The notes below the pieces were generated by a model. It worked only from the letters and a program-made list of their open reading frames with translations, searched no databases and was not told the DNA's origin. Both the position numbers and the translations under genes were made by a program. Of a stretch of 64,000 nt of DNA, positions 14,582 through 54,111 are shown in pieces. Position 1 is the stretch's first letter. Every line of letters begins with the position of its first letter. The DNA comes from a virus. The DNA is taken from IMG/VR virus record IMGVR_UViG_3300027763_002499, positions 26,549 through 90,548 of that record. The stretch is one strand, 5' to 3'.

Positions 14582-14592
14582 AGAAAAGGCTG

Positions 14593-17318: not shown

Positions 17319-17406
17319 TGTTGATAACTTTCAAATTGAAACGTTGATGTTTGCTATTATACCACAAACAAACAGAAAAGTCAATGGTTAATATGTTGTA
17401 TACAAT

Positions 17407-25933: not shown

Positions 25934-25995
25934 AAAATCCCCAAATTGGTTTAATATAAAGGTTATTATACTCAAATTTATGAAACTTGTCAAGT

Positions 25996-26802: not shown

Positions 26803-26828
26803 TGGAAAATCCTTTAAAACGATACTTA

Positions 26829-28286
26829 TCAATATACTGGTATATTATGTAGATTTTGAAATTTCAGTGCATCATCCCAGGTGTTTACCAAGGGCTCACC
26901 TTTGATGTTAAGGCTTGTATTCATTAATACAGGACAACCGCTTTTTCTGTTCCACTCTTCCAATAATGTTCTAAAAGTTATATTGTCATCTTTTGATACA
27001 GTTTGCACCCTACTTGTTCCATCTACATGACAAACTCCAGGCAGTTCACCGCTGGTACACTTTGCTACAAACTGCATATAAGGACTAGAGGACACAGGCA
27101 TGTCAAAGTATGCACCAGCATGTTCTTTTAGTACTGCTGGTGCAAATGGTCTAAACTGTTCTCGCTTTTTAATAGCGTTCATTCTAGACTTGGCTTTGGG
27201 TCCACGCGGGTCACATAGTAGACTACGATTGCCTAACGCTCTTGGTCCAAACTCTGCTCTGCCATTTGCTACTGCTACTACTTCTCCTGCCTGTAGACGT
27301 TTGACCACAGCATCAATGTCAAGTTCACGTTCAATATCTGTGCCAAGATAAGGATGCTTCCATGTCAAGTGCTCTTTGGTATGTACGGCAACTGCTCCAA
27401 TAGCACTACCAGCATCACCAGGGTTAGGCATGATCCAAATGTTGTCAAAGACTTGACTGCGAGCAAGCCTAGCATTGGCAACACAATTTAATGCCACTCC
27501 CCCCATGAACACAAGATTTTTGCTCTTGATATTCATGCTCATACCAATTACAGTTTCTATCAGGTAATCTTCAACTATGCTCTGAACACATGCGGCAATA
27601 TCAAACTTATTGGTGTTTAATGGTGCAGTCCACCAACGACATCCGCGATGTAAGTTATGTCTTAGTTTAAAATCTGGTGCTTCAATATATTCAAAGAATT
27701 CATTCTTAATATGGTTTTTAAGAACTAGGTCAACAGAACCATATGCTGCCATGCCCATAAGAATGTATTCTTCTTCGTTGGGCTTTAGGCCAACATAATC
27801 AGTAAATGCTGTGTAAAACAATCCAATGCTATTGGGATAACGCTGTCGCCATTTACACTTTAATTTATTTGCCTGACCTTCCCAGATGCTAACAGTATCC
27901 CATTCACCAATGGCATCAACTACAAGTACTGCGGCATCACTGTATCCGCTTGTGTAGTATCCAGCTGCCGCATGACTATGATGGTGTCCAACAACCTCCA
28001 TTGGCAAATTATCCAACCCAACAAGTTTGAGTTGATCTTGAGGATTTACAATCCAAGGTCTTTGTCCCGAGTAAAGTCTACGCAAATTCTTAGACCAAGG
28101 CTTTTCAAACCATACAATTTGAGTTGGTTCGCCGTACTCACGCATTTCACGCACCATGTTAACATCTAACATAGTATCGTTTTTCTTTCTGCTATAGCGT
28201 TCGCTGTGCCCTGCCCAGAGTATTTTATCTCCATCAATCAGTGCCATACTGGCATCATGATTCTGGGCAGTGATACCCAGAATCAT
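26829..28286 (-). CDS. carbamoyltransferase (NodU/CmcH family)
   Basis: HDAS, HHHSHAA, DAIGE, GGVALNC, GDAG, EFGPRALGNRS, RPFAP, HVDGTSRVQT, NTSLN. Confidence 0.95.
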   Translation of the reverse strand: MILGITAQNHDASMALIDGDKILWAGHSERYSRKKNDTMLDVNMVREMREYGEPTQIVWFEKPWSKNLRRLYSGQRPWIVNPQDQLKLVGLDNLPMEVVGHHHSHAAAGYYTSGYSDAAVLVVDAIGEWDTVSIWEGQANKLKCKWRQRYPNSIGLFYTAFTDYVGLKPNEEEYILMGMAAYGSVDLVLKNHIKNEFFEYIEAPDFKLRHNLHRGCRWWTAPLNTNKFDIAACVQSIVEDYLIETVIGMSMNIKSKNLVFMGGVALNCVANARLARSQVFDNIWIMPNPGDAGSAIGAVAVHTKEHLTWKHPYLGTDIERELDIDAVVKRLQAGEVVAVANGRAEFGPRALGNRSLLCDPRGPKAKSRMNAIKKREQFRPFAPAVLKEHAGAYFDMPVSSSPYMQFVAKCTSGELPGVCHVDGTSRVQTVSKDDNITFRTLLEEWNRKSGCPVLMNTSLNIKGEPLVNTWDDALKFQNLHNIPVY

Positions 28287-30356
28287 TTAAATACCCTTCC
28301 ACTTACTAACTGGAATGTCGCCGCCACAGTGGCAACGCAAACTATTACAGATAACCGGGCGAGAAAAACTGTCCCAATTAATTTTATCAAATTCTTTTAC
28401 AGAGCCAACAACACCGCCTACATCACAATTTCCACGTTTGATATGTCCATTTTGATGAATGAATAAACTTTCAGCACCAATGTTGCACAAGTAATCATAG
28501 AAGTTTGTCTGTCCTTTGTTGATTAGACCCTGAGGACTTGTTATGTTTTCAGTGGTGTTATCTTCAAAGGTTGCTTGGACAGGAGTTGCATGGAAATCTC
28601 TATATATTGGATTGGTTATTCTAATCAAATCAGCAGATGATCGACTTGGTGTTTCTTTAAATGTTTTAAAAAATTCAAGTTGTTCTTCGCTGTAATTAAT
28701 TTTAGCCAACTTGGTCCTGCTTGCACCATACTGGTCGTCGATATAAACAATTTCAATTTTAGCAGTAGTTTTCTTTTTAAGTTTTTCAATGAACTCTATA
28801 GATTTATCCCAATGCAACGGATCCATCATAATACGAGCCGCAACTTGAGTTTCTAAACTGGCAATTTTAATTTTTTCCAACCATTCATCTGCTGTACCAT
28901 TGGGAAACTCTTGTGCTGGATGAAAGCTACATGCCGCATAAGTCAGATATTTAAAATTATCTTTAATAAATCTTGGAGTACGCACAAGATTTGTAGTCAT
29001 ACCACCGGTACCACCAAGAGTGTGAATACGCTCAATCATCTCCGGGAAGAAAGGACTTAGCGTAGGTTCTCCACCGCTCAATGAAAATGTCAAATGCCGG
29101 TTCTTGCCATATTGTTCAAATAACCTGTCAAGGAAAGGAGAAACAACATCCCAGTTAAACAAATGGTTTTTTCCATCGTGTAATACTGGTGGGCAATACC
29201 TACAAGCATAATTACAAATGTCATTTAAGATCCAGGTAATGATTGCTTTGTCTTCATTCTTAATTTCAATGATCTTTTTAGCCTGGACTGGGATTGGAAA
29301 CTTCCACTGCGGAATACGTGCTCTTGGAGTTTTAAATGCTGAATGCATTTGTATGTTGTCAACAATCTGTACATCTTGGATGCTTTTAAATCTACTTAGG
29401 TCTTTCTTCAAGCCATGTGATGCAGAATATAATGTATCTCGTTGTTCACCTAGCATGTGCCCAATGCCCATATACCCATGGCGATTGTCTGGATGAGACC
29501 ATTTGTGTCCTTGTATGCCATCAATGTTTAATGCTTTGAATTTTTTATATTCATTTGTAAGTGTATATGGATCATAATCGTCATATACAAGATACGCGGC
29601 CATTTCATTAGACCATGTTTCCTGACGATAAAAGGCATTTTCGTCAACAGCTCGTTGGTCATTATCAGCAATAATGTGACTCATGTTTTTACCAAGAGTA
29701 TTATAGCCTAGTACCAAGTCGCCAAATCTAAGCCTGTGTAAAAAGCTGGCTGCATCCTCTTCGGTAATTTCAAAATCAATCCTTGGATTGAAACTGATCA
29801 AAATATTGGCAGCAGAATAACTAGGTTCCTTTTTGCCTGATCCTCTTTTTTTAATAAACATTTCAGCAGTGTGAATAGCATCGTTCAACTGAATGAATGT
29901 ACTGTGAAAATCCTCATTGAAGGTAATACCTGGCCAACACTTGGCTTCTGGGCTGTCTGCTGAAATGCGTTTATAAGCATCATCCCACCATTTTTGTGAT
30001 AGCTTTTCGCTTAGACGTTCACCATAAATCTCATATTCCTCGTGGAGGTAATTTAGTGCATCTTGATCGTGTTCTCGAAACATTGTCAATGGGCGGTCAT
30101 AAAAAAGATTAATTTTTCTAACAATATTACTCAAACGCTCATCAAGATCCAATCCTTGATAGGCCGCACTCCTTGTAAACTTAATGCGCTTTTCTCGAAA
30201 ACTTTTCTCTCCGTAACGCATGTCTTCCATGAGCTTGACCCATTTCTTGGCAAGATTGGTATTGTACAGCTTATAGTATATGTCAAAAGGTTCCCACGTT
30301 GTTGTATCAACAAGCGTGAGCCGTACGTTTTTGTCGTTTAGATATTTTCCGCTCAT
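28287..30356 (-). CDS. fusion: unnamed His/Glu domain plus radical SAM with C-terminal Cys cluster
   Basis: CNYACRYC, SGGEP, terminal CNIG..GNC..CNSLRCHC. Confidence 0.88.
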   Translation of the reverse strand: MSGKYLNDKNVRLTLVDTTTWEPFDIYYKLYNTNLAKKWVKLMEDMRYGEKSFREKRIKFTRSAAYQGLDLDERLSNIVRKINLFYDRPLTMFREHDQDALNYLHEEYEIYGERLSEKLSQKWWDDAYKRISADSPEAKCWPGITFNEDFHSTFIQLNDAIHTAEMFIKKRGSGKKEPSYSAANILISFNPRIDFEITEEDAASFLHRLRFGDLVLGYNTLGKNMSHIIADNDQRAVDENAFYRQETWSNEMAAYLVYDDYDPYTLTNEYKKFKALNIDGIQGHKWSHPDNRHGYMGIGHMLGEQRDTLYSASHGLKKDLSRFKSIQDVQIVDNIQMHSAFKTPRARIPQWKFPIPVQAKKIIEIKNEDKAIITWILNDICNYACRYCPPVLHDGKNHLFNWDVVSPFLDRLFEQYGKNRHLTFSLSGGEPTLSPFFPEMIERIHTLGGTGGMTTNLVRTPRFIKDNFKYLTYAACSFHPAQEFPNGTADEWLEKIKIASLETQVAARIMMDPLHWDKSIEFIEKLKKKTTAKIEIVYIDDQYGASRTKLAKINYSEEQLEFFKTFKETPSRSSADLIRITNPIYRDFHATPVQATFEDNTTENITSPQGLINKGQTNFYDYLCNIGAESLFIHQNGHIKRGNCDVGGVVGSVKEFDKINWDSFSRPVICNSLRCHCGGDIPVSKWKGI

Positions 30357-30376
30357 AAAGTCCTCAAATAATGTTT

Positions 30377-31609
30377 TTATATATCAAGTAATCTGGCATG
30401 CGTTGTGCCATGTAATTCATCTAGCCCGTTTACATAATCCAACATTTGTGGATATAAATGGCTCCAATCTTCGCTATTCATAAATGATATTAGGCCTGTA
30501 AATCTAGAAACAAGTTTGTTATCAGGATGTTTATCTATATATTCTTGTAACTTCTTGGTAATTTTTTCTTTTTTGTCTGCAGGCAATGATTTAGAACACA
30601 GGTATGGTGGCCAGTGCAAAATGCCCAAGAAGAAAATGCCACCTTTATTGTCACGTTTAATCTTTTCCAAATCTAAACTCATCATCCAATCTGCAAACTC
30701 TGGCAACCAGTTAATGTTTAAGGCCTGCACTGTACACAGTACCTTGACATGAATGTTTTCTGGCAATTCACAGTAGGCCTTAAAGTTCTTTTCAATGGTT
30801 GCCCAATCGGCCGGATGACGAATATATGAGTTAACCCAATCGTATCCATCAATACTGAGCATGAGTTCTACTTTTTCAAAGTGTTCCCACAGCTCGACAA
30901 TTTCAGGACTATAAATTGTACAGTTGGTGTGATATCGCAATTCAATGTTCTTAGACAGTCCACTTTCAACCAAGCGTTTGATTAGTGTTTTGTGTTCTTT
31001 AATATAAAGAGGCTCGCCACCGCCAAATATAATATGTTTGATGTCTTTGGCATGTGTAAAGAAATCATCCCAGAATTCTTCATTTTTATACCATTCAAAC
31101 TTTTCACTGGCAAATGTTTCAATCTTATGCTTCCAATCATATCGAGCATCAGTTTGTAAACTATTGCTGAGTGTTTCTGCATCCTTGATCCACTTGCTGG
31201 AATCTTTGGGCCCACACATGACACATTGTAAATTGCAAGTATTACCTAGTCGTAGGTCCAAGGTTATAATGTCATGATTAACTGTGCCATTTTTGTTGGT
31301 GCCAGCAACTAAATTGTCAAGATATGTTGTGTCTAACTGTTGATACCAATAATGGTTTTCATTTTGTCTATGACTTTTAATACCATTTGCTTCTTCTTTG
31401 TAGCAGGCTTCGCAAGCAGGAAACTTACGACCGCCAAGCATGGCCAGTCTGGCTTCTGTAAAATGATTACTGTTCCATATCTTGGTCCAATTGCTTGTAT
31501 TTAAATTTAGACCACTGGTCTTGGCCACACAGCATAACAATGCTGAACCGTCGTTATAAGTTGCCGCATGTATCCATGGGAGAATACAAAATGTATCAGA
31601 TTTTACCAT
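30377..31609 (-). CDS. radical SAM enzyme with N-terminal twitch/SPASM-like domain
   Basis: CILPW..CC..CEAC; CNLQCVMC; GGEP. Confidence 0.92.
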   Translation of the reverse strand: MVKSDTFCILPWIHAATYNDGSALLCCVAKTSGLNLNTSNWTKIWNSNHFTEARLAMLGGRKFPACEACYKEEANGIKSHRQNENHYWYQQLDTTYLDNLVAGTNKNGTVNHDIITLDLRLGNTCNLQCVMCGPKDSSKWIKDAETLSNSLQTDARYDWKHKIETFASEKFEWYKNEEFWDDFFTHAKDIKHIIFGGGEPLYIKEHKTLIKRLVESGLSKNIELRYHTNCTIYSPEIVELWEHFEKVELMLSIDGYDWVNSYIRHPADWATIEKNFKAYCELPENIHVKVLCTVQALNINWLPEFADWMMSLDLEKIKRDNKGGIFFLGILHWPPYLCSKSLPADKKEKITKKLQEYIDKHPDNKLVSRFTGLISFMNSEDWSHLYPQMLDYVNGLDELHGTTHARLLDI

Positions 31610-32900
31610 TAATGAAATCCACTATTCTCGAGTCAAGAACTGTATAGTCCTGTTTCCTTGCACTATCCAGGCTCTTGGTGTAAACTTGTAATCGTGCAAG
31701 TTGTTCTTGCCAATCTTCTGCTCTTGTTTGCTGTAGTAATCCTATTATACCATTAACGCTGTTCTTTGTCAAGTCATGAACATTCCATGGCATCTTTTTA
31801 TCTCTATAATCTGTTAACATTTTTAGAGCAGTGGCTCGCAGACTATCTGGTAGTATGTTCACATTCAAATGATGTGGATGTATGTTGATTAATAAATCAA
31901 CAAATATCTTCTTACTGTATTTCTTGTTAAGTTCGTCAACCCAGGTCAGTGTCTCGACTAAATTAAATACATTGTAAACTTGTACCGTTGGAGTAACGCC
32001 TAGCTTAATGTTAGGTAATGCGGCTAGTTTTTCAACATTGACTTTGAGCTGGCTCCATTTGCTAGGAGGACGAATGTATTCGTTGACAGCACCAATGCCA
32101 TCAAGACTTGCGTTAATGTTAATTTCATCAAATTGGCTAATCAAGTCTGTAAACTTTTGATTTACGTTTGTACAGTTGGTATTAAAGAATAACAGTATAT
32201 CCTTTCTGCCTTGATCAATACACTCCTGCATAAACTTAAAGTTATGCTCAATCAATGTAGGCTCTCCGCCTGTCATGTAAACTTTTTTAAGATCTGGAAT
32301 TAATTTTATAACCTGGTCCCAAAGCAAATCGCTTTCAAACCATTCCTGGTTCTTCATTACAGCTTCGGGGAACTTGCCAAATGTCTTGCCCCAAACCTTA
32401 CTATACTCGCTGTCTGCAATTACAATGTCCTTGTGTTCTTTAGCAATCTGACTAGAGTTCCAGGGATTGCACATGCGGCATTTTAAATTGCATAGATTGC
32501 CTAATCGCAGGTCTAGATATACAATATCCTTGTTTACTACGCCTCCGTTCATCTTGGCAAATCTTACTCGTTGTTGTAGTTCCTCTTCTCCGAGACGCCA
32601 AGCCCATTCATTGTTGGCATGCATGCGATTGCTTTCACGACCTGATTCCTCTTGTAGGTAGCATGTACTGCAACCCTCAACCCGATCACCTTGTATCATA
32701 GCAGTACGAATGTCTCGCATGTCTTTGCCATTCCATGCGTGTTCTATAAACTGGTCCTGGATTGTAAAAAATTTACCATCTTCTTTTTTGAGTTTGTTAG
32801 CAGAACCCTTTACCATACAGCAATAACGAACTGTGGTATCGGTATTCACCATCATACTAACAAACGGGATGGCACAAAATGTATTTGAAATTGGTTTCAT
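31596..32900 (-). CDS. radical SAM enzyme with N-terminal twitch/SPASM-like domain
   Basis: CAIPF..CC..CSTC; CNLKCRMC; GGEP. Confidence 0.92.
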   Translation of the reverse strand: MKPISNTFCAIPFVSMMVNTDTTVRYCCMVKGSANKLKKEDGKFFTIQDQFIEHAWNGKDMRDIRTAMIQGDRVEGCSTCYLQEESGRESNRMHANNEWAWRLGEEELQQRVRFAKMNGGVVNKDIVYLDLRLGNLCNLKCRMCNPWNSSQIAKEHKDIVIADSEYSKVWGKTFGKFPEAVMKNQEWFESDLLWDQVIKLIPDLKKVYMTGGEPTLIEHNFKFMQECIDQGRKDILLFFNTNCTNVNQKFTDLISQFDEININASLDGIGAVNEYIRPPSKWSQLKVNVEKLAALPNIKLGVTPTVQVYNVFNLVETLTWVDELNKKYSKKIFVDLLINIHPHHLNVNILPDSLRATALKMLTDYRDKKMPWNVHDLTKNSVNGIIGLLQQTRAEDWQEQLARLQVYTKSLDSARKQDYTVLDSRIVDFINGKI

Positions 32901-32941
32901 TAAACTAAGATTTAACTTTAATAGCTTTACTTAGTGGTTTT

Positions 32942-32964
32942 AGACTGGGCAGATCTGCCCAGTC
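32942..32964. terminator. palindromic hairpin inside the cluster
   Basis: AGACTGGGCAGATCTGCCCAGTCT. Confidence 0.5.
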
Positions 32965-32966
32965 TT

Positions 32967-34463
32967 TCAAGATGTGCGAGATTCTTCTTGAGTAACTTGG
33001 TCTCGCCAAGTGTAATTTAGTACCTTGCTTGCAATTGTGTTGTTATTAAAATCAACCAATTCCATCTTGTAAACATCATCATAGTTAAACAGATCGAGCA
33101 TGATACTTTCGGTACTATCGCTGGAATCCCAATCGCTTCTTATTATTTGAGCCACTGGGATTTTACCAATGCTGGTAAACTTACTTTCTGGATCAACATT
33201 TCTTTCTCGTAACCAAGGAAACATTTTGTTGTTTAAATTATTAATAACTTGCGTTTGTAAATCACGGCTATGTTCTTTTAAGAACATTACATTACATTCA
33301 CCGCTAAGGTAACGTAAACCACTTATATTCTCATCGTGGATCTCGCCATCTTTGTCGTGATAGGCTTCAATTGGTGTTTTTCCAAGTTGGCAATAGTGTA
33401 AAAATACATCACCAAAAAATTCATATTGTGTAAAATTGTCAAAGTCGCTTTCAACGAATTTGTAACGCCTGACTGGCATTGCAGGGAAAAAAACATAAGA
33501 ACTCCAGAATCCTTGTCCAATTTTGTTTTGTCTGCAACCTTCTATTTCATGACATAGGTTATTGAGTTGTCTAATTGCAAACATCACGGGCAATGTTGCA
33601 TTGGCAAAATACTTGGCTGGATTCCATACTTGCCCTATCAATAGCTCAAAGTGATGATGAATCTCATTAAGAATCTGTTGATCCAGTGTTACAGGATCAA
33701 AGAATTGTGTAATGTTATATAACGGGCGTTTTTCTTCATCACTACCGTCAAAGTATTCATTGATTGTGTTTACATACTTGTTTAATTCACTGCACAATGC
33801 TGGTATATTTCTTGCAACAGGACTGTTATCTGGGTACTGCCAATTTTGCAACATAAAATTCTTTTCAAATGTAGCATTGTCATCTGCCAAATAGTCATTG
33901 TGACAGCATCTTGCCCATTTTTGTGCAATAAAAGATGTATTAATTCTAAACCTTACTTTTTTTGTTTGGTTGTTGGCAACTGACCTGAAAGTCAATTGAA
34001 ATTCATTGTAATTGGTATTCTTATATGCATTGCCGATTTTTTCTACGGTAGAACCATCTGTGGTAATTTCTGAACTAAACAATCTGGCCTGGCGCACCTG
34101 TTCAACATGGTCATAGTCTGCCAACCAAAGAAAGTTGTTTACATGGCATTGAGATTCTAGGTCATCAAAAAATTCCCGGCTGTCAGCAATAAAGAAAGAC
34201 TTGTATATACTGTTACAATATGCCCAAAATTCGTCAAATTTCTCCCTGCTGTTGAAATAATGAATTAGGTTATCAACTTTGCCGTTGGGACTTGCCAACG
34301 CTTCTTTAATAAAGTTGATTTCACTTTCAGCATCGCATAAAAAAATTAAACGAGTATTTGAGGCCTTTTGCAAGGTTGCAAAAGCCAACAGTCCGGGTAA
34401 AGATATACCATAGACATAATAGTTTTCAACATAGGTTTCGGGATTTGTAAATTGTGTCAGCAT
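32967..34463 (-). CDS. hypothetical protein with C-terminal His/Glu-motif domain
   Basis: LNEIHHHFE..QLNNLCHEIE..FGDVFLHYCQLGK, shared with two cluster paralogs. Confidence 0.8.
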   Translation of the reverse strand: MLTQFTNPETYVENYYVYGISLPGLLAFATLQKASNTRLIFLCDAESEINFIKEALASPNGKVDNLIHYFNSREKFDEFWAYCNSIYKSFFIADSREFFDDLESQCHVNNFLWLADYDHVEQVRQARLFSSEITTDGSTVEKIGNAYKNTNYNEFQLTFRSVANNQTKKVRFRINTSFIAQKWARCCHNDYLADDNATFEKNFMLQNWQYPDNSPVARNIPALCSELNKYVNTINEYFDGSDEEKRPLYNITQFFDPVTLDQQILNEIHHHFELLIGQVWNPAKYFANATLPVMFAIRQLNNLCHEIEGCRQNKIGQGFWSSYVFFPAMPVRRYKFVESDFDNFTQYEFFGDVFLHYCQLGKTPIEAYHDKDGEIHDENISGLRYLSGECNVMFLKEHSRDLQTQVINNLNNKMFPWLRERNVDPESKFTSIGKIPVAQIIRSDWDSSDSTESIMLDLFNYDDVYKMELVDFNNNTIASKVLNYTWRDQVTQEESRTS

Positions 34464-34466
34464 AGA

Positions 34467-34568
34467 TTAATAGATAAATGGGTCACGCTTTTTCAGCTCT
34501 TTGAGTCGTTTTCTGTAGCGAATTTCGCCTTTGATTTTTTCAATAATATTTTTAATAAAATTCCACAT
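34467..34568 (-). CDS. 33-aa basic peptide ending RDPFIY (not in ORF track)
   Basis: MWNFIKNIIEKIKGEIRYRKRLKELKKRDPFIY; AGGA RBS; fills the gap. Confidence 0.75.
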   Translation of the reverse strand: MWNFIKNIIEKIKGEIRYRKRLKELKKRDPFIY

Positions 34569-34579
34569 TGTGTTTCTTC

Positions 34580-35470: not shown

Positions 35471-35484
35471 TTAATTCTCTTGCT

Positions 35485-36372: not shown

Positions 36373-36375
36373 GAT

Positions 36376-38495: not shown

Positions 38496-38498
38496 GAT

Positions 38499-40686: not shown

Positions 40687-42035
40687 TATTGACCTGTAAT
40701 CATTGGCTTCAAGTCTATATATTCAGGAAAGACCTCAAAGAAATCTTCTTTTCTATTATTATCAAGCCACAATTCTCTTCGCCAGCCTGCTGTTATTAAA
40801 TTATTAAACTTTGCAGGATTCTTTAAGATATCAATTGCACTTTGGTATCCCTGAATCGCATTGTGTAAATTTGAGCTTGTGGGATTTTCTGTATCAGCAA
40901 ATGTCGATAGCCATTTAATTTGCTCTTCGTACAATTCAGTTAGCTTGGCTTTGTGATGGTCTGGCAGGTTGGAAATACACCAGTGTTCTGGACCAAACAA
41001 TAGGTTAACAATAATGTCGCCTGGTCCAACATATCCAAGGTTGACCCATTCTCTGTGAAAATCAACAATATTATATGCTGTCATTATGCTTAACGTTGCA
41101 CCAATGATAAACTTCACATGCGGAACCTCAGCAATCATTCGTTCTCTGTTTTTAACTACCTGTTCCCATGACAAATTTTTACGAGCATATTCTCCTCTTT
41201 TATAACTGCCGTCAAGACTGGCCGAAACTGTTACCCTCTTAAATTTTTTCCAATACTCAATGACATCAAATTTTGAATGAGTCAACTTGCTAAAATTTGT
41301 ATTGTAAAAAATGTCAATGTCGGTGTTTCCTAGTTCTAAGAAATAATCTAAGATTTCGTAATGCTGAGGCATAATTAACGGTTCGCCGCCGGCAAAGTAA
41401 ATTCTATGGCAGCTTCTTAGATTTTGTTTAAGACTCTCAACAGACACGTCGGCTTTGTGAAATCTGGTCAGGTTATTATTGACTATGATTTTTTTCTCAA
41501 CCATTTCTAGCTCTTCAGGATACCACGTTGAGCTATATTCTGGACCACATGACCTGCATCTTAAATTGCAAGTGTTATCAAACCGCACATCTAGGTAATT
41601 AATCTCAGGTTCGTCAACTGTGTAATCTTCGGCGACTGCATTGCGAATAGTTTCACCAACTTCCCACTGATCCATCCATCCTAGCATTGCATGTCGCATA
41701 CTATGAGTATTAACTGCTTCGCCCTTCCAGCAATATTCACATTGTGAATTTTTAACTCCGTTTAGCAGATCCTTACGCAGGTCTTTAAAAGACTTGGTAT
41801 TATATGCATTGACAATATCCTTGTTTGTTGAACCTTCAATTTTAGATCGTGGTTCACCTGTACCGTATTTGTCGCCAGACTTGGGTGCCCTATGCACACA
41901 ACAGGCACCTAAACTGCCGTCTGTATGGATATAATAAGAGTTAAATGGTGCTGGACAAAATGTACCATTTGTTTTAATTTTCTCCCATTCTGCATCTGTA
42001 AATTCTAATTTTTTAGTCATTGTCATTTGTCTCAT
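40686..42035 (-). CDS. radical SAM enzyme with N-terminal twitch/SPASM-like domain
   Basis: CPAPF..CC..CEYCW; CNLRCRSC; GGEP. Confidence 0.92.
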   Translation of the reverse strand: MRQMTMTKKLEFTDAEWEKIKTNGTFCPAPFNSYYIHTDGSLGACCVHRAPKSGDKYGTGEPRSKIEGSTNKDIVNAYNTKSFKDLRKDLLNGVKNSQCEYCWKGEAVNTHSMRHAMLGWMDQWEVGETIRNAVAEDYTVDEPEINYLDVRFDNTCNLRCRSCGPEYSSTWYPEELEMVEKKIIVNNNLTRFHKADVSVESLKQNLRSCHRIYFAGGEPLIMPQHYEILDYFLELGNTDIDIFYNTNFSKLTHSKFDVIEYWKKFKRVTVSASLDGSYKRGEYARKNLSWEQVVKNRERMIAEVPHVKFIIGATLSIMTAYNIVDFHREWVNLGYVGPGDIIVNLLFGPEHWCISNLPDHHKAKLTELYEEQIKWLSTFADTENPTSSNLHNAIQGYQSAIDILKNPAKFNNLITAGWRRELWLDNNRKEDFFEVFPEYIDLKPMITGQ

Positions 42036-43242
42036 ATCGCGGCAACAGCCCCCTGATATAATCTAATATCTTAGGTTCAACAAAATGTCTGGTCTTTTGG
42101 TTTCTTGAAAGATCAACCAAATAAAATTTATTATAAATGTCAGCTAGCTCATTGTTGCTTGGTAGTCGGCTGTTCATATGATTTACAAGTCCCTTGACAA
42201 CATCTTTGTCTAATGCACTTTTATTCCATTTATCTTCGATAAGATCTTTTGCACCATCCGGTAAAGCCCATAAGGCCATGTGAGGAGGACTGTGAATTAG
42301 ATTATACCAAATTGAAAATGTTGGTGTATTGGTATTAATCCATTCAACAAATTGAGGTAGGTCCCAGGCATTTATCCAGCCAATGGTATGACTAACGGAG
42401 ATATTTGTGTTATCAAGTTCTCCGGCAGCTTTTATGGCATTATACCTGATTAGGTTTTCTTGTACTTCGTCCCATTTACCAGGATAACGAAGATACTCAT
42501 AGGTCCTACCAAGTCCGTCGATACTTAATCCCAATCCCACTGACTTGAAATTATCATTGAGGAATTTAACACGTTCGCCTGAGAATATTGTAGCGTTTGA
42601 ACTTAGTGATATATTAATTTCTTTACTGCGACCACTGGTCACAAACTCATCCCATATGTCATTCCATTGCTGAATATAAAATGGTTCGCCACCAACAATT
42701 TCCAAGTTTTTTACATGTTGCATCCACTCATGACGATTTTTCCAAAGTAGTCCATTCTTATCTCCACTTTGGCTATGCTTCATTTCATAACCAGTGGTTC
42801 CGTATAATACCTTATGCTCGGCTTGCCATAAATTACTATGACTTGGAGAGCAACTGCGGCATTTGAGATTGCAGGCATTGTTAATAATCATCTGATATTC
42901 GTAAGGCAAGCCCGGCTCGCTATCAAAGTCAACTATAGAATCAAAAGTTTTATCTGCATTTCTAGTGTAAATCTGACGTTTGCTTTTGTGTCCGTTGTTT
43001 TCATCAACAATGCAGGTTTCACATGCCAGTGGTTTTTTACCATCACGGAAATCTTGTCTTAGTTTCTTCATGTAGTTACTGGAAAATATTTCTGTAACAG
43101 TGTTTGTTTGAACGTGCATGAATTCGCCATTGTCGTCTTTGATGTAATCTTTATACAGGCAACAAGGACGTACCTTACCGTCAGGATCGTTACTGAATCC
43201 TGTCCATGGAAGGCTACAGAGCCATTTTTTAGATTGAGTCAT
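42013..43242 (-). CDS. radical SAM enzyme with N-terminal twitch/SPASM-like domain
   Basis: CSLPW..CC..CETC; CNLKCRSC; GGEP. Confidence 0.92.
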   Translation of the reverse strand: MTQSKKWLCSLPWTGFSNDPDGKVRPCCLYKDYIKDDNGEFMHVQTNTVTEIFSSNYMKKLRQDFRDGKKPLACETCIVDENNGHKSKRQIYTRNADKTFDSIVDFDSEPGLPYEYQMIINNACNLKCRSCSPSHSNLWQAEHKVLYGTTGYEMKHSQSGDKNGLLWKNRHEWMQHVKNLEIVGGEPFYIQQWNDIWDEFVTSGRSKEINISLSSNATIFSGERVKFLNDNFKSVGLGLSIDGLGRTYEYLRYPGKWDEVQENLIRYNAIKAAGELDNTNISVSHTIGWINAWDLPQFVEWINTNTPTFSIWYNLIHSPPHMALWALPDGAKDLIEDKWNKSALDKDVVKGLVNHMNSRLPSNNELADIYNKFYLVDLSRNQKTRHFVEPKILDYIRGLLPRYETNDND

Positions 43243-44584
43243 ACCAGTTTATAAACCTTTGATCTAGTGATTCACGGAAATTCTTATTTCTTCTTTTGTC
43301 ATATTGTGACACATATGATTTTAAATCTTTTAATGCGTTTTCTTCACTCAAATGCTTTTCCCATTTAACGTTTGTTTCTGACATATTTACAATTAGTCGT
43401 TCAACGTGAGCAATTTCAGTATCATGGCACAGGCTTCTATTTTCATCTAGCCAGGCAGTAAATTCTTTTACCATCTCTAACCTAAGCTCAATAGGGATAA
43501 GCTGAACACGCATAAATGCAGGTGAATGAACAAAGTTGCAATTAAGTTCAACCCTGAGTTGTCCATATTTAATCTTAAGGTCTTTGATCATATTTAGATA
43601 ATCAATCATGGACCAAACACCAAGGTTGTTAATGCTTGTAGTAAAGTTTAATCTATTGACAACATAGCTTGGACTTTCAAGTACTGTAATCACATTCTTC
43701 ATCCATACATCGCCATCAAACCCGTCACGAATGTATTCAGTTTGTTTTAACGAACTTTCAATGCTGGTGTGTAACACTGTTCTAAAATTACTACCCACTG
43801 TATCAAGCAAACGCTGTAGCACATCTTCTTTGCAAACAAGATTGGTATTAATTGACAAGTCTCTATTAAACTCACCTTCTTTTAATCTATCTAGGAAGCG
43901 CCAAAAGTTTGGACTCATGGTAGGTTCGCCACCAGTGACACGAAGCCACTTTAGGTCTCTTTCTAAAGTAGGTAACCATTTAAAAAAAGCTTCAACATAG
44001 GGGTTTTCTCCCTGATCAATCATGTCTTCATCGTTTGATTTGGTATATCTAGAATCAGTAAGCAATCCTTCATATGGACCGTAATTTTTAATGTCATTTG
44101 CCCATTTGGTGCTAAATGCTGGACCGCAATAGGCACATGCCAAATTACAAATCCTGTCAAACGCAATTTCTAGCATGTAAGGATTAGTTGTTAGTGGTCT
44201 CTCTGCCTTCATCCATTTGTATAAACGATAGGTTGGAACAGCCTGTGTTTTAATATAGCGATCACTTAGTCCTCCGTCATCTTCAATGCTCCAGCAATAA
44301 TTACAACCGCTGGGCTTTTCACCATCAAGCATGGCCTGTCTCTCTCGTATTTTTTGAGGAGTATTTTGTAGACTTGACGGGTCATTTGGATCTAGTTCAA
44401 TCTTGTGAAATGGGTTGTGATGGCAACTGGCTGTTGCACCCTGGTATAGCCAAATTGTACCTTCAAACCATTTGGCGCCACAGAAGCTAGGACTAACCTT
44501 GTCCATTTGCTCTTCTTTAAAAATTTTAAATCGAGCAGTTTCTCCAGTCTGATGTGATTTCATGTCTGACATATTAAATTTCAA
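43229..44584 (-). CDS. radical SAM enzyme (SCHH subtype)
   Basis: CGAKW..SCHH..CNYCW; CNLACAYC; GGEP. Confidence 0.92.
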   Translation of the reverse strand: MKFNMSDMKSHQTGETARFKIFKEEQMDKVSPSFCGAKWFEGTIWLYQGATASCHHNPFHKIELDPNDPSSLQNTPQKIRERQAMLDGEKPSGCNYCWSIEDDGGLSDRYIKTQAVPTYRLYKWMKAERPLTTNPYMLEIAFDRICNLACAYCGPAFSTKWANDIKNYGPYEGLLTDSRYTKSNDEDMIDQGENPYVEAFFKWLPTLERDLKWLRVTGGEPTMSPNFWRFLDRLKEGEFNRDLSINTNLVCKEDVLQRLLDTVGSNFRTVLHTSIESSLKQTEYIRDGFDGDVWMKNVITVLESPSYVVNRLNFTTSINNLGVWSMIDYLNMIKDLKIKYGQLRVELNCNFVHSPAFMRVQLIPIELRLEMVKEFTAWLDENRSLCHDTEIAHVERLIVNMSETNVKWEKHLSEENALKDLKSYVSQYDKRRNKNFRESLDQRFINWYDSI

Positions 44585-45944
44585 TCCTGTTGTACCAATC
44601 TGCTAAATCTGGAAATGCTTCTGTGAAATTCTTTCCGCGACGTTGATCATATTGCTGATAGAAACTCTTAAAATCCTTTTCGAGTTTTTCTCTTTCAAAT
44701 GCATCCTTGTGCGGTGTTTTTACAACGTCAAGATAGTCAATCAATCGTTGAGTTTGATTAACTTCCATCTGATGCAATAATTCACTGTCTTTGTTATCAT
44801 CTAGCCACTGTTGTAATTTATCTTTTCTAGTTTGCCTCATATCATCTGGCATAACAGTAGGACTTTGGAAACTTGGGAAACGCAAGATGTTCAGGGAAAA
44901 TACAGCATAATTTCTACCATGCTTGGCCTTGAAAGCCATTACCCAATCTAAGAATTCAGTCAGACTTTCCAAGCAAAGTAAATTGATTGTACACATAACA
45001 TGCAATGCTTTAAAATTACCACTGGTGGCCAGTTTGTGCATATTATCTTCCCACTGTTTCCAATCAAGCCCGTCACGAATGTACTCGGCTTGTAGACCCA
45101 CTGCTTCGCCACTGGTATAAATTTGTAGGTCATCAATGTACTGTGCTCTATCAATTAACTTGTCAATGAGTTCATCTTTTCCGCCCAGATTACTGTTAAC
45201 TGCCAATCTCATATCAGGATTACGAGTATTCTTTGGGTCAGCAAACCAATCTAATAAACGCCATGTATGTGGGCTCATCAATGGTTCACCACCAGTGACA
45301 CGAAGTTCATATAGTGTTCTGTGCAAGTCACTTTCCCACCACTTGAAGAATGCTTCAATATAAGGATTACTTGGATCATGGTCATATACACCAGCAGAGT
45401 CATGAATATGATTATAGTGACCACGCCCATCTGTGTGCAGGTTGGTATAGTTGCCAAACTTCTTTAAATCGTTTACCCATGTTGTACTAAACGCAGGATT
45501 GCAATAAGAACAGGCAAACTGACAGGTGCGGTCAAACGCAATTTCTAGTGTGCGGAGATCTACATCGTTATTATAATCACCTTCCCATGCTTCTTTTAGC
45601 AAGTTGTCATCATATATCACACTTTTGTAAACGCGATCGCTGATGTTGTCTCTGCCAATGTCTTCAACTTTCCAGCAATATTCACAACCTGGTGGACGTT
45701 CACCATCTTGCATTTGCCTACGTTCATTTTTCTTATGGGCTGTATTGTGAATAGCCTTAGGGTTAAATTTAATTTCTTGTAAATCAGCTTGGTGTGGCAA
45801 AGGATGGTGACAGCTGGTGGTTTGTCCGCTGCCTAACCAAATGGTTGCATTGTACCATTTAGCTAGACATAAACTTTTACTGTGCCCGTCAAGCAAGTTT
45901 TTAATTTCGTGGTCAGTTGATCTGCCCGGAACACGTAATGTCAT
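44574..45944 (-). CDS. radical SAM enzyme (SCHH subtype)
   Basis: CLAKW..SCHH..CEYCW; CQFACSYC; GGEP. Confidence 0.92.
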   Translation of the reverse strand: MTLRVPGRSTDHEIKNLLDGHSKSLCLAKWYNATIWLGSGQTTSCHHPLPHQADLQEIKFNPKAIHNTAHKKNERRQMQDGERPPGCEYCWKVEDIGRDNISDRVYKSVIYDDNLLKEAWEGDYNNDVDLRTLEIAFDRTCQFACSYCNPAFSTTWVNDLKKFGNYTNLHTDGRGHYNHIHDSAGVYDHDPSNPYIEAFFKWWESDLHRTLYELRVTGGEPLMSPHTWRLLDWFADPKNTRNPDMRLAVNSNLGGKDELIDKLIDRAQYIDDLQIYTSGEAVGLQAEYIRDGLDWKQWEDNMHKLATSGNFKALHVMCTINLLCLESLTEFLDWVMAFKAKHGRNYAVFSLNILRFPSFQSPTVMPDDMRQTRKDKLQQWLDDNKDSELLHQMEVNQTQRLIDYLDVVKTPHKDAFEREKLEKDFKSFYQQYDQRRGKNFTEAFPDLADWYNRIEI

Positions 45945-47536
45945 TTTGTTTTTCCTGTGATATTTTTAAAGCTTTGTTCGCTTAGTATATATAACTCTTC
46001 CAATTCGGGGAAGGTTTTCCTAAAGTTGGTATTGCGTCGCTGATCATGTTGAGTTACAAATGCAAAGAAATCAGCCCTGGCCATTTCTAATTTATCCGCT
46101 GTTAGTGGTTGTATTGCCCAGTCGTACAAACGTTGAACTTTATCTATTTCAAAATCTTTAAATCCTTTATATGGATTTTCTGATGTTTCAATGTTTTCTT
46201 TCATGAACTCAATTGATTCAAGTAACACATCAAAGTAGTGTGTTGGTAGTAATTTTAAACTTAACCAAACAGGATCGTTTAGCATTGGCACATCAAACCA
46301 TACCAATTGACGAGTAGTATTAAATTCTTGACGTAAACGTAAAATATTTTTTACATAATCCATCCAACCTGGAATACTAAGTGCATTAAAAGTAACAATT
46401 AAATTCAAGCTGTGTTTTCGGCCTACACGCAAATACTCTGTTATGTTTCTATGAAGCATTTCAAAGTCCAAGCCATATCTGCCGTACTCAGCCTGTGGCC
46501 CCCACGAATCTAGGCTACAGTAAAGCATGAAATGGTCAATTGCATTTTTTGTTTCCAATTCGTCAAGTGAGGTTAAAAACTTATTCCACTGATTACCAGG
46601 TGGACAGCAGTTTGATGTAACACTTAAATGTAGGTCGTCGCCTTTTGGATTGGCTGCCACATAGTCAAAAATCTTAAAGGTATTTTTATCCATAAAAGGC
46701 TCGCCGCCAGTCATGCGAAATGTTTGTAGTGTTGGGTAGATAGTAGGGAACCATTCCCAGAATGCCAATAGGTATGGATTATCTGGTCCGTTATCTGGAA
46801 TCATGTTTTCATTTTTCATCCAGGTTGTATCATTGTGTCTACGACCATCTGCCAATATTAACGGACCATGCTTGTCAATTTCTTTGTGCCATTCTGTGCT
46901 CAAATGAGGACTACAATATGAACACTTGAGATTACAGGCCTGGTTAAAGTTTACTTCCACATACTTTGGTGTTGGGTCACCATTATAACCATCCTTGACC
47001 ACTTCATTGAGTACACCTGGGCGCCAAACATCTTTGCTACGATAAGCTCGGTCACTTAACATTTCACCACTGTCTTCAATTTCCCAACAGAAATTGCACT
47101 CCTTGGGTCTGACACCATTGAGCATTTTCTTACGCTGTTCTTTTTTAAATTTAGTGTTATGAATTGCACCGGCATCAAGTTTAATTTCCTCTAAAGGAAT
47201 CTTGTGTGCAGGCGGATGATAACAACTATGTGTCTTGCCAGTGGGAATGTGAATACTTACATTGTACCACTTGGCCAAGCACATGCTAGGGCTAATCTCA
47301 TTGAGAATTTTAAATACTTTTTTAGTATCTTCTAGGTATACACTTTTTGCAACACCATTTGTTGTAATGGTGCCATCACCTTTAACTTGATGTAACTCGC
47401 CTCGGAATTCTTCCTTCTCTTCCTCAGACATGTATGCATATAGCTTTGGCTCAACAAGACCTGCAATTCTCTTTTTTGCTAATTCTTCATTGCTATTGTC
47501 AAACTTGTTGTTCTTAATTTTATTGAAAATGTTCAT
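45941..47536 (-). CDS. radical SAM enzyme (SCYH subtype, N-terminal extension)
   Basis: CLAKW..SCYH..CNFCW; CNLKCSYC; GGEP. Confidence 0.92.
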   Translation of the reverse strand: MNIFNKIKNNKFDNSNEELAKKRIAGLVEPKLYAYMSEEEKEEFRGELHQVKGDGTITTNGVAKSVYLEDTKKVFKILNEISPSMCLAKWYNVSIHIPTGKTHSCYHPPAHKIPLEEIKLDAGAIHNTKFKKEQRKKMLNGVRPKECNFCWEIEDSGEMLSDRAYRSKDVWRPGVLNEVVKDGYNGDPTPKYVEVNFNQACNLKCSYCSPHLSTEWHKEIDKHGPLILADGRRHNDTTWMKNENMIPDNGPDNPYLLAFWEWFPTIYPTLQTFRMTGGEPFMDKNTFKIFDYVAANPKGDDLHLSVTSNCCPPGNQWNKFLTSLDELETKNAIDHFMLYCSLDSWGPQAEYGRYGLDFEMLHRNITEYLRVGRKHSLNLIVTFNALSIPGWMDYVKNILRLRQEFNTTRQLVWFDVPMLNDPVWLSLKLLPTHYFDVLLESIEFMKENIETSENPYKGFKDFEIDKVQRLYDWAIQPLTADKLEMARADFFAFVTQHDQRRNTNFRKTFPELEELYILSEQSFKNITGKTK

Positions 47537-47593
47537 TTGTGTGCTTAGATAAAATGATAATGATACTTATCATGCAAAATGTCAAGGGTTTAT

Positions 47594-48856
47594 TCAGATG
47601 AGCTTTTTGTTGTATTTGAGTATGGTTTCCATATCACTTGCCAACTTTGGCAATTCCTTCCTCCATTGTGTTTTTCGAATCTTATCCTTATCATTTAACT
47701 TGTACACTTGCTCATTAACCTTGTCAATTACTACATCTTTACTATAATTAGAAGGATTTTTAAGTACATATAAAAATTCTTTAAATGCCCTTCTTCTTTC
47801 CTCGATGGCGTATTTGTCAAATAAAGGATTAGTGAAATTTTTGCTTAAATCTTCTACATTCTGTATAGTTTCTTCTCGCATTGCAGGTGTTAGTACATCA
47901 ATAGAAAGTCCAACGGGATAAACCATTGGACCAAAATTCATGCGACAGCCATTGTTGTTGGTTATGCCATCTAGCCAATTTGCAATTTTGCCTATCATGC
48001 GATAGTTTGCTAAACCAATTGTTATGGTAAATTCTAAACGTATATGAGGGCCTTTCTTTGCCATCAAGGTTCTTATATTTGATGCAAACTCCTTGGCATC
48101 AAGACCATAACGAATGTACTCTCCCCATCTGTCAAAACCGTCGATACTAACTGATAATATCACTTTACCGTTTACCTTATTCCACATGTCTATTAGATCA
48201 TAATTCTTATAGGTTAAGTGACTAAAATTGGTATTGTAAAATATTTCAATTGGTTGCTGGCTGTCAATGAACAATTGTAATATTTCATAATGATGTTCTG
48301 CTATAGTAGGTTCGCCGCCAGCAAAATAAATTCTCTCAATATCTCTATAAAATTCTTTAATTTCACTTAATATTTTATCACTATCTACACTAATAATTGG
48401 TGTAGGAAGTTTTGGAACCTTAAGTCTTTTATCTTCTACAGCGTGTGAAGAACTATATGTATCACCGCAACCAATACAGGCAAAATTGCACTTGTTGGTA
48501 AATCTATAGTCCAGGTACAATTGTTTAAATTCTGCATGTCCGGTAAGATCTGTTTCTATCAATGATATAAATTCTTTCCATTTTTCATTTACATCCTGTC
48601 GTAACGATCTCCTACCAGCCTCTTCAAATCGAGCACATGAACTACATTCTGTAGGCAGTGCGTCAGAAGTAAGCATGTGTTTTCTAATTTTTTTATACGT
48701 GTGACCTTGGAAAATTTCCTTTAATGTGTTGTTTTTCAAATTGCCAACAGGAGTTTTTGAAGTAAGACAGCATAAATTTACATTGCTGTCTGGATCAATT
48801 TCCGAGTGCATCCATGGTAGGACACAAAATGCTTTGGGTAGATTGTTGATATCCAT
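47594..48856 (-). CDS. radical SAM enzyme with N-terminal twitch/SPASM-like domain
   Basis: CVLPW..CC..CSSC; CNFACIGC; GGEP. Confidence 0.92.
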   Translation of the reverse strand: MDINNLPKAFCVLPWMHSEIDPDSNVNLCCLTSKTPVGNLKNNTLKEIFQGHTYKKIRKHMLTSDALPTECSSCARFEEAGRRSLRQDVNEKWKEFISLIETDLTGHAEFKQLYLDYRFTNKCNFACIGCGDTYSSSHAVEDKRLKVPKLPTPIISVDSDKILSEIKEFYRDIERIYFAGGEPTIAEHHYEILQLFIDSQQPIEIFYNTNFSHLTYKNYDLIDMWNKVNGKVILSVSIDGFDRWGEYIRYGLDAKEFASNIRTLMAKKGPHIRLEFTITIGLANYRMIGKIANWLDGITNNNGCRMNFGPMVYPVGLSIDVLTPAMREETIQNVEDLSKNFTNPLFDKYAIEERRRAFKEFLYVLKNPSNYSKDVVIDKVNEQVYKLNDKDKIRKTQWRKELPKLASDMETILKYNKKLI

Positions 48857-48860
48857 TTTA

Positions 48861-48906
48861 ATAGTACTTTAGTCGAGGTATTTACCTCCTATGACTAAAG
48901 TACTAT
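48861..48906 (-). promoter_or_regulatory. long hairpin enclosing a TAAATA motif at the head of the cluster
   Basis: 14-bp ATAGTACTTTAGTC/GACTAAAGTACTAT stem with inner GAGGTA/TACCTC. Confidence 0.55.
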
Positions 48907-48916
48907 ATTGGATATC

Positions 48917-54051: not shown

Positions 54052-54111
54052 GTGCATCCTTAAGAAATTAGTTGGGGGCTTTAGGCCTGCCCCCGCAAGG
54101 CCCAAAGTCTA

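Follow-up and report, generated by a model that had tools for sequence, protein, structure and literature searches.

A 22-kb block with ten radical SAM genes in an uncultured freshwater phage enlarges a recurrent phage and bacterial cassette and could tailor a carbohydrate

Overview

A 64,000-nt stretch of viral DNA (hereafter the window; bases 26549–90548 of the linear, 90.5-kb IMG/VR record IMGVR_UViG_3300027763_002499) contains, at positions 26829–48856, a block of 18 open reading frames (ORFs) that encodes ten radical S-adenosylmethionine (SAM) enzymes. The source is an uncultured, giant, freshwater phage with a genome of about 335 kb, as implied by the CheckV completeness of 27% for the record. 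The protein superfamilies in the block are known, and the family to which nine of the ten enzymes belong (NF033640) is catalogued. A sequence-only reading of this DNA had recognized neither that family nor the cluster's being an expansion of a smaller cassette that is also found in bacterial chromosomes. The block is an enlarged version of a recurrent cassette, g04-g03-g02'-g09-g10, and is built from three linked modules: a radical SAM trio (g02-g03-g04), a hydroxylase-containing core (g09-g10, with or without g11), and a carbamoyltransferase with a micropeptide (g01-g06). Our preferred reading, held at even odds, is that the block tailors a substrate of carbohydrate type, which could be a nucleotide-sugar, an oligosaccharide, or a protein- or lipid-linked glycan. 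The acceptor may be a virion protein or a host envelope component.

Organization of the block

All 18 ORFs lie on the minus strand and are named g01–g18 by coordinate. Packing is tight. The 17 junctions include 8 overlaps and 1 direct abutment, 15 measure 20 nt or less, and the only gaps above 50 nt are at g04/g05 (66 nt) and g17/g18 (57 nt). The sequence-only reading had described 18 co-oriented, mostly overlapping genes; the number and orientation hold, and "mostly overlapping" is slightly overstated because 8 of the 17 junctions overlap. At the downstream edge of the block, g01 and the adjoining PF01223 nuclease gene share 4 nt. The motifs CxxxCxxC and GGEP each occur once in exactly 10 of the 18 proteins (g02–g04 and g12–g18) and in none of the other eight, so the ten radical SAM proteins named in that reading are borne out. 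The genes are as follows.

g01, 26829–28286, minus: O-carbamoyltransferase (NodU/CmcH/TobZ type), 485 residues; PF16861 188.8 bits, PF02543 169.3 bits.
g02, 28287–30356, minus: 689 residues, g11-like N-terminal domain plus a radical SAM domain outside the N-terminal-twitch family; CxxxCxxC at residue 381, GGEP at 428; PF04055 31.8 bits.
g03, 30377–31609, minus: N-terminal-twitch radical SAM, group A; NF033640 370.1 bits.
g04, 31596–32900, minus: N-terminal-twitch radical SAM, group A; NF033640 352.3 bits.
g05, 32967–34463, minus: 498 residues, g11-type domain; BLASTP to g11 and g02.
g06, 34467–34568, minus: micropeptide, 33 residues, C terminus KKRDPFIY; conserved in other phages.
g07, 34580–35470, minus: GDS-motif protein, 296 residues, tentatively SGNH/DUF6071-like; GDS motif and paralogy with g08.
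g08, 35485–36372, minus: 295 residues, paralog of g07; BLASTP.
g09, 36376–37170, minus: 2-oxoglutarate (2OG)-Fe(II) hydroxylase, Asp/Asn β-hydroxylase family; PF05118 45.5 bits.
g10, 37110–38495, minus: 461 residues, predicted GT-A-fold N-domain and class I methyltransferase-like C-domain; structure model.
g11, 38499–39443, minus: 314 residues, domain with invariant Asn/His/Glu/Lys positions; alignment A2.
g12, 39430–40686, minus: N-terminal-twitch radical SAM, group B; NF033640 259.1 bits.
g13, 40686–42035, minus: N-terminal-twitch radical SAM, group A; NF033640 341.1 bits.
g14, 42013–43242, minus: N-terminal-twitch radical SAM, group A; NF033640 273.4 bits.
g15, 43229–44584, minus: N-terminal-twitch radical SAM, group B, TTG start; NF033640 258.1 bits.
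g16, 44574–45944, minus: N-terminal-twitch radical SAM, group B; NF033640 316.9 bits.
g17, 45941–47536, minus: N-terminal-twitch radical SAM, group B, extended by 80 residues at the N terminus; NF033640 317.2 bits over residues 82–516.
g18, 47594–48856, minus: N-terminal-twitch radical SAM, group A; NF033640 288.3 bits; Pfam SPASM at residues 11–74, 42.5 bits.

Nine diverged N-terminal-twitch enzymes

Nine of the ten radical SAM proteins (g03, g04, and g12–g18) match the NCBIfam family NF033640 (N_Twi_rSAM, "twitch domain-containing radical SAM protein") across the whole model at 258.1–370.1 bits, against a curated cut-off of 170 bits; g02, at 16.4 bits, falls outside it. The general radical SAM family PF04055 scores above its gathering threshold in seven of the ten and below it in g14, g16, and g17. 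The N-terminal domain of all nine N_Twi proteins carries four invariant cysteines (C8, C27, C66, and C69 in g03 numbering). Pfam SPASM (PF13186) scores above its cut-off at the N terminus of g03, g04, g14, and g18. A SPASM domain is C-terminal, with seven cysteines and two auxiliary clusters, and the N_Twi proteins, with an N-terminal domain and four invariant cysteines, are not SPASM proteins in this sense. Full-model matches, the four N-terminal cysteines, CxxxCxxC, and GGEP tie the nine to NF033640, but whereas that family is a catalogue entry, here it is represented by nine diverged paralogs within one phage operon.

The paralogs share only 18–37% pairwise identity. In a FastTree phylogeny of 77 family members (from this window, seven viral loci, the cultured phage RsoM2USA, and 13 bacterial loci; rows with E < 1e-15 and at least 340 residues), they divide into two groups: B, with g12, g15, g16, and g17 (23 rows, support 100), and A, with g03, g04, g13, g14, and g18. 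Each window paralog joins its counterparts from other phages in a separate, supported ortholog clade; the g12 clade comprises 5 rows, and the g03 and g04 clades include Bdellovibrionota proteins. Several branches are long, and we therefore rely only on the ortholog clades. A separate ortholog clade for each paralog, together with the low identity, indicates that the array is an ancient set of specialized enzymes and not the product of recent amplification.

Profile comparison with the PDB found no solved structure close to the N_Twi proteins, the best matches being SkfB (E 6.7e-8) and BlsE (PDB 7vob; E 0.008). BtrN is a twitch-type radical SAM enzyme that acts on a sugar. The N_Twi proteins resemble BtrN and the cytosylglucuronate decarboxylase BlsE in having one auxiliary cluster beside the SAM cluster, and the BlsE match is weak. 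The auxiliary domain of BtrN and BlsE is C-terminal, however, whereas that of the N_Twi proteins is N-terminal, and the resemblance does not extend beyond the generic core.

The g09-g10(-g11) core

The hydroxylase that had been proposed from the sequence is confirmed: g09 matches PF05118 at 45.5 bits (cut-off 22.6) and has the iron triad H181-x-D183…H229. Its true start is probably Met20, at 37113, since relatives in the viral locus L012 begin at the equivalent position.

A structure model of g10, built from an 18-sequence alignment (predicted local distance difference test score, pLDDT, 91.6), has two domains, residues 1–238 and 240–458. The N-domain adopts a GT-A fold, with LH3 (6fxm) at Z 11.6 (root-mean-square deviation 3.0, 160 aligned residues), Mimivirus R699 at Z 11.1, COLGALT1 at Z 10.7, and both TarP and synthases of glycosyltransferase (GT) family 2 type (hyaluronan and heparosan synthases) at Z of 10–11. 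The C-domain is class I methyltransferase-like, matching the small-molecule N-methyltransferases (NNMT, 7wmt, Z 9.5; 6ulo, Z 10.2), with invariant G278 and D300 and no Pfam match. The "possible SAM-binding protein" of the sequence-only reading is thus g10, in which the C-terminal half would be the SAM-binding part.

The domain of g11 is common to g11, g05, and the N-terminal half of g02 (BLASTP E values of 2.6e-10 for g02-g11, 7.7e-4 for g02-g05, and 1.5e-4 for g05-g11), and a profile from alignment A2 (28 sequences) reaches the g05 ortholog of the viral contig L009 at E 4.5e-11. This bears out the unnamed His/Glu domain of the earlier reading and places it in three proteins. Invariant positions of g11 include N82, H112, H116, N136, H140, E143, and K203, and equivalents of H112, N136, H140, and E143 are retained, by eye, in g02 and g05. 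The g11 model (pLDDT 90) has no fold match above background; the best is Z 8.5, to a helical segment, with cyclophilin-like barrels at Z 7–8. Neither g05, g10, nor g11 has a Pfam, NCBIfam, or PHROG match, although sub-threshold Pfam hits for g05 and g11 have E values of about 0.1.

A single-sequence search with g10 found no related viral loci, and tblastn of g10 and of a distant relative in L042 against 50,697 GenBank phage records returned nothing; a search with profile A1 succeeded. The g10 profile reaches at least 497 viral loci, and 587 cluster representatives match g10 at E ≤ 0.001. Among 80 loci taken from these, g09 abuts g10 in 70, and in 9 of the remaining 10 g10 is at a contig edge. 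At least one N_Twi gene lies within 10 kb in 11 of the 80 loci, and at least five in 6. Among 17 long g10 relatives, nine are g09/g10 fusions (in either order), two are g11/g10 fusions (P0016 and P0236), and one joins g10 to a g02-type radical SAM protein. These fusions indicate that g09, g10, and g11 act on one substrate.

The g09-g10 pair (36376–38495 in the window; L018–L088 elsewhere) is a widespread unit that often sits inside GT4/epimerase clusters of small marine phages. Phages with the pair only contribute 138 neighbor representatives, drawn from within 7 kb and grouped at 60% identity; among them are 9 GT4, 7 PF01521, 6 further PF05118, and 4 NAD-dependent sugar epimerase/dehydratase proteins, as well as 5, 3, and 3 matches to three methyltransferase families, which possibly overlap. 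An A-type Fe-S carrier-like gene just upstream of the pair is a neighbor type common to 29 sampled loci. In L140, L145, and L154 (about 13870–17540), the g10 homolog makes up the first part of a ~1170-residue ORF.

The fold matches invite comparison with collagen hydroxylation and glycosylation. LH3 and COLGALT1, like Mimivirus R699, couple a 2OG hydroxylase to a GT-A-fold protein, sometimes in one chain, and the g09/g10 fusions parallel that arrangement. The differences are that g09 is PF05118 by Pfam, whereas the LH3 hydroxylase belongs to another 2OG family, that identity is 8–16%, and that no collagen-like substrate was seen. The LH3 region matched by g10 is residues 296–540, which we take to be its accessory GT-like domain.

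The collagen-modifying matches, the naming of PF05118 after a protein hydroxylase, and the fact that peptide maturases are the next-best family matches of the N_Twi proteins, with SkfB the best PDB match, would all fit direct protein modification. The radical SAM enzymes would then be side-chain maturases acting on a phage or host protein, for example of the virion, with g09 hydroxylating Asp/Asn-type residues, g01 carbamoylating the resulting hydroxyl, and sugar chemistry not central. We regard this as unlikely. No conserved candidate substrate protein lies beside the cluster, the downstream neighbors differing in L010, L012, and L015; in bacteria, the company of the radical SAM trio is GT2 genes rather than small precursor genes; and the similarity to maturases is confined to the generic radical SAM core, with E values of 1e-5 to 1e-9.

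The carbamoyltransferase and its micropeptide

The assignment of g01 as a NodU/CmcH carbamoyltransferase is confirmed. It carries both Carbam_trans_N and Carbam_trans_C (PF02543 and PF16861) and matches PHROG 1601, "Nol-like carbamoyltransferase," at E 6e-101. The nearest solved chains are NovN (E 5.9e-61), GdmN, and TobZ (5e-42); NovN and TobZ act on sugar hydroxyls. At 138.7 bits against a 1000-bit cut-off, g01 is not a member of the NodU equivalog NF041651. Both Pfam domains are common to g01 and NovN, GdmN, TobZ, NodU, and NolO, but g01 is shorter (485 residues compared with 576–687) and has a dedicated micropeptide.

That micropeptide, g06, had been noted from the sequence as a 33-residue peptide, and it proves to be real and conserved in other phages: L009, L010/L011, L054, and RsoM2USA all have one. 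Its form is a variable, basic, helical N-terminal part followed by the invariant C-terminal motif DPFIY; a Pfam search with g06 gave no match. Among 80 viral loci found with a g03 profile, the motif is present in 15 of the 16 with g01 and in none of the 64 without it (Fisher p 2e-15). It is absent from the radical SAM-rich, g01-less loci L012 and L013–L017, and it was not found in 31 bacterial loci.

The same distribution bears on a pathway to a ribosomally synthesized and post-translationally modified peptide (RiPP), one of the products offered by the sequence-only reading. In such a pathway, g06 would serve as precursor, and the radical SAM enzymes would act on its C-terminal DPFIY as the core. 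The two-part form of g06 is reminiscent of a precursor, and radical SAM-SPASM enzymes commonly mature peptides, as NCBIfam family names attest. Because the peptide tracks g01 rather than the radical SAM genes, this reading is largely refuted, and we consider it highly improbable. The packed block leaves no room for other small ORFs, and Pfam and NCBIfam scans of the cluster proteins turned up no RRE-type (RiPP recognition element) domain. The RiPP maturases SkfB, PapB, YhhB, and CcpM have weak core similarity to the N_Twi proteins, but here no precursor peptide is linked to the radical SAM genes.

A different role for g01 would be in DNA or nucleotide hypermodification, with the g10 C-domain, g09, the g10 N-domain, and g01 acting in that order on a base and the radical SAM enzymes elaborating the adduct, much as in 5-hydroxymethylcytosine (5hmC) pathways. 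A set of methyltransferase-like protein, dioxygenase, and GT-A protein mirrors known base pathways of this make-up, namely base J and the phage TET systems. An ATP-dependent DNA ligase gene lies near the cassette (52717–54105) and directly beside it in RsoM2USA. Yang et al. (2021; PMC8670742) confirm that a NodU-type enzyme of some phages, of the same superfamily as g01 and likewise phage-encoded, carbamoylates 5hmC in DNA and in 5hmdCTP, as the sequence-only reading had stated. In the same study, however, the 5hmC carbamoyltransferases co-occur with a thymidylate synthase homolog within 3 kb and with dCMP deaminase genes, whereas GT-flanked carbamoyltransferases are on unmodified contigs (PMC8670742). 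We found neither gene in the window record; specifically, thymidylate synthase (PF00303) has no match in the 90.5 kb, or ~27% of the genome. This absence and the published GT-flanked enzymes weaken the DNA hypothesis. Further against it, g09 is PF05118 by Pfam, the g10 C-domain matches small-molecule N-methyltransferases, and in Bdellovibrionota the radical SAM trio lies on the chromosome, beside GT2 and major facilitator superfamily (MFS) genes. Taken together, these points make base modification distinctly unlikely.

In gene layout, g01 with a short ORF and GDS-type proteins is also similar to part of the saxitoxin set, in which the carbamoyltransferase gene sxtI has adjacent short ORFs sxtJ and sxtK along with GDSL gene sxtL (gene-set description in PMC2885083). 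The comparison of g06 with sxtK concerns gene layout; Pfam gives no match to g06.

The GDS-motif proteins

The paralogs g07 and g08 (60% identity) both have a GDS motif at the N terminus, and the proposal of two SGNH proteins stands as far as two GDS-motif paralogs are concerned. Their SGNH identity is tentative: g07 scores 14.9 bits against Pfam Lipase_GDSL_2 (cut-off 32.9), and hhalign of the g07 group with the GDS proteins of L054 gives a probability of 89.5% over merely 60 columns. Against three DUF6071 proteins of RsoM2USA, hhalign gives 41%; Pfam DUF6071 (PF19547) does not match g07 or g08 at E ≤ 5, and a g07-related neighbor cluster in the Atlas has DUF6071 in 20% of its members. Nothing scores above cut-off for either protein in Pfam, NCBIfam, or PHROG.

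A recurrent cassette in phages and bacteria

A megablast search of phages with the whole cluster returned nothing. L009, a 105-kb contig, carries these genes in identical order, except that its GDS gene is single, at 63–93% amino acid identity. The ratio of nonsynonymous to synonymous substitution between window and L009 (dN/dS) is 0.02–0.19 in the 12 of 17 genes with computable dS, with dS saturated or high throughout (at least 0.8 or not computable). The block is intact and under purifying selection. The nuclease, ATPase, and ClpX-like genes downstream of the block are also found in L010, L012, and L015, so a chimeric assembly can be dismissed. Other studies' lake and freshwater metagenomes hold contigs with at least 99% identity to the cluster, and a related strain spans the cluster in contigs of 8.3 and 10.7 kb. 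With dN/dS no higher than 0.19, syntenic viral contigs, and independent lake metagenomes, there is no sign of the decay or chimerism that the earlier reading had allowed for. One lake metatranscriptome library contains 8 contigs of 151–236 nt, with at most one mismatch, in g04, g05, g12, g13, and g16; DNA carry-over is possible, gaps in cover are uninformative, and we take them as weak evidence of transcription.

The g03 family comprises 501 proteins at E ≤ 1e-10, and the g03 profile finds 140 viral stretches. In the 80 that were counted (some are near-duplicates, and L121 is the L009 contig), g04 is present in 76, a g02-type radical SAM gene in 59, g09 in 33, g10 in 28, and g01 in 16, and at least five N_Twi genes in 8. 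A g04 homolog is directly beside g03 in the mapped viral loci, and the compact order g04-g03-g02'-g09-g10 recurs in viral contigs. The expectation that similar radical SAM-rich regions exist in related uncultured phages is thereby realized, in L009–L017 and L054 among others. By sequence motifs, L054 adds an APS-kinase-like protein, a cytidylyltransferase-like protein, and five GDS proteins. Our literature search yielded no description of N-terminal-twitch radical SAM arrays in phages.

The same profile finds 31 bacterial loci, mostly in metagenome-assembled genomes (MAGs) of Bdellovibrionales, on contigs of up to 945 kb. Here g03 and g04 are adjacent, often with a g02-type radical SAM gene and sometimes with g01. 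Among 115 neighbor representatives within 5 kb, GT2 is by far the top family (17 of 115). In L091 and L104, the gene immediately upstream of g03 encodes one and the same GT2 type, and 8 of the neighbors belong to the cluster of that type at 50% identity. GDSL, MFS, and class V aminotransferase genes are also near the bacterial trio.

One contig, L090 (from the MAG "Gammaproteobacteria bacterium MED685"; NZGL01000008.1, 108 kb), resembles a phage in the genes that surround its g04-g03-g02' module. Among proteins not labeled viral, none is nearer to the window genes in the tree than the g03 and g04 of this contig. The contig may be a mis-binned phage.

A minimal cassette is found in a cultured phage, Ralstonia phage RsoM2USA (MG752970.1, 343.8 kb), the only one of 50,697 GenBank phage records with a g16-type gene. 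The order is DUF6071, g16 ortholog, DUF6071, micropeptide, DUF6071, and g01 ortholog, with a DNA ligase gene adjoining. The g16 ortholog, RsoM2USA_202, is 54% identical (tblastn E 3e-156; phmmer E 2e-165). The micropeptide is an unannotated 36-codon ORF ending in QDPFIYK, between RsoM2USA_201 and _200 (16168–16278 of L089), flanked by the three DUF6071 genes, the N_Twi radical SAM gene, and the carbamoyltransferase gene, all annotated merely as hypothetical. The main text of the RsoM2USA paper makes no mention of radical SAM or carbamoyl, and its supplements might list the ORFs (PMC8504454).

A possible carbohydrate-tailoring pathway

Four lines of evidence point to a carbohydrate substrate: g10 has a GT-A fold, g01 is related to NovN and TobZ, neighborhoods are GT-rich in two independent settings (phages and Bdellovibrionota), and GDS proteins are present. 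On these grounds we propose a pathway of hydroxylation, glycosyl transfer, radical editing, carbamoylation, and acyl handling. The multi-step tailoring system of the sequence-only reading is thus supported, and of the three substrates it offered, a glycan or sugar is the one best supported by context. We infer the substrate class, each reaction, and the reaction order from the families, folds, linkage, fusions, selection, and contexts described above.

In this pathway, the g09-g10-g11 core would first make or install a sugar-bearing intermediate: g09 would hydroxylate the acceptor, the GT-A-like half of g10 would transfer a sugar to the hydroxylated acceptor, and its methyltransferase-like half would methylate. 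The ten radical SAM enzymes would then each abstract hydrogen at a different carbon, using one SAM cluster per enzyme and, in the nine N_Twi enzymes, an additional four-Cys auxiliary cluster. The edits could be redox-neutral or oxidative, such as epimerization, dehydrogenation, deoxygenation, or C-C bond formation. Next, g01, aided by g06, would O-carbamoylate a free hydroxyl at the expense of carbamoyl phosphate and ATP, and finally the GDS proteins g07 and g08 could add or remove an acyl group.

Genes at two places elsewhere in the window could serve this chemistry and are counted in its favor, their functions and links to the cluster being predicted. At the first is a possible Fe-S supply gene for the radical SAM enzymes, and those at the second could clear 5'-deoxyadenosine.

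1814–2152, minus: A-type Fe-S carrier (ErpA/IscA-like); PF01521 80.8 bits.
15455–16562, minus: PNP_UDP_1 nucleosidase-like plus phosphoribosyltransferase; PF01048 57.4 bits, PF00156 31.9 bits.

Several observations weigh against a carbohydrate substrate. The evidence for it is guilt by association throughout. The 90.5-kb record, ~27% of the genome, has no Pfam GT2 or GT1 match, and a GT is absent from the minimal RsoM2USA cassette. g10 is a GT by fold only, with 8–16% identity and no GT family match, and it has invariant H97 and H155-D156 instead of a clear DxD. In NCBIfam and the PDB, the N_Twi proteins have as their next-best matches the peptide maturases PapB, YhhB, CcpM, and SkfB as much as the sugar enzyme BlsE, and literature and structure searches found no characterized NF033640 member. 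The substrates of characterized PF05118 enzymes are protein residues or lipid A. Finally, an O2-dependent hydroxylase among O2-sensitive radical SAM enzymes has no explanation.

A more specific version of the carbohydrate reading is that the N_Twi enzymes are a new carbohydrate-editing class, arrayed up to nine or ten at a time in large aquatic phages alongside a g09-g10-g11 core that hydroxylates and then glycosylates, and that together they yield a hyper-edited glycan, carbamoylated and borne by a virion or envelope acceptor. We put this forward as a tentative idea, somewhat doubtful as it stands.

Surroundings of the block

Beyond g01, the gene for the PF01223 non-specific nuclease (25996–26832), whose product has a hydrophobic N terminus by eye, is followed by a gene for an FG-GAP repeat protein (24791–25993); L010 and L015 likewise have the nuclease gene downstream of their clusters. 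On the other side, ~1.5 kb upstream of the cluster, is a gene for a Bax inhibitor-1 family membrane protein (50399–51112; PF01027, 173 bits), which is unusual for a phage.

Perfect inverted repeats lie in two gaps, 32901–32966 (after g05) and 48857–48916 (upstream of g18). They may form RNA hairpins that split the block into sub-operons. Late-type motifs, taken earlier as favoring virion decoration, were not substantiated: promoter-like sites number 81 compared with 70.7 ± 8.9 in shuffles, and TATAAATA is absent from the coding strand between 26 and 52 kb. Terminator-like sites are likewise not in excess (16 compared with 12.4 ± 2.8 in shuffles). No Rfam family reaches its gathering score in the window, and a scan for tRNA genes detected none. 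A preQ1-I riboswitch candidate at 3125–3195, before a QueD/PTPS gene (2616–3119; PF01242), did not stand out: Rfam gave no match at gathering score or at E ≤ 1 over 3000–3350.

Implications

Overall, 22 kb of DNA with ten radical SAM genes, along with the Fe-S carrier and nucleosidase-like genes, represents a heavy investment by a phage in unassayed chemistry. New here are the g09/g10/g11 and radical SAM fusions, the wide spread and independent occurrence of the g09-g10 pair, the GT2-linked module of Bdellovibrionota, the quantified link between micropeptide and carbamoyltransferase, and the recognition of RsoM2USA as an experimental system, in which the minimal cassette is testable now. Both the NF033640 family and the g09-g10 pair are widespread in viral contigs, and neither has a known function; solving one cassette would annotate thousands of environmental genes. 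If the N_Twi enzymes do edit carbohydrates, the product would be a phage surface chemistry without characterized precedent. Possible gains include radical chemistry on sugars that is new to science and a further layer of phage-host recognition or defense evasion.

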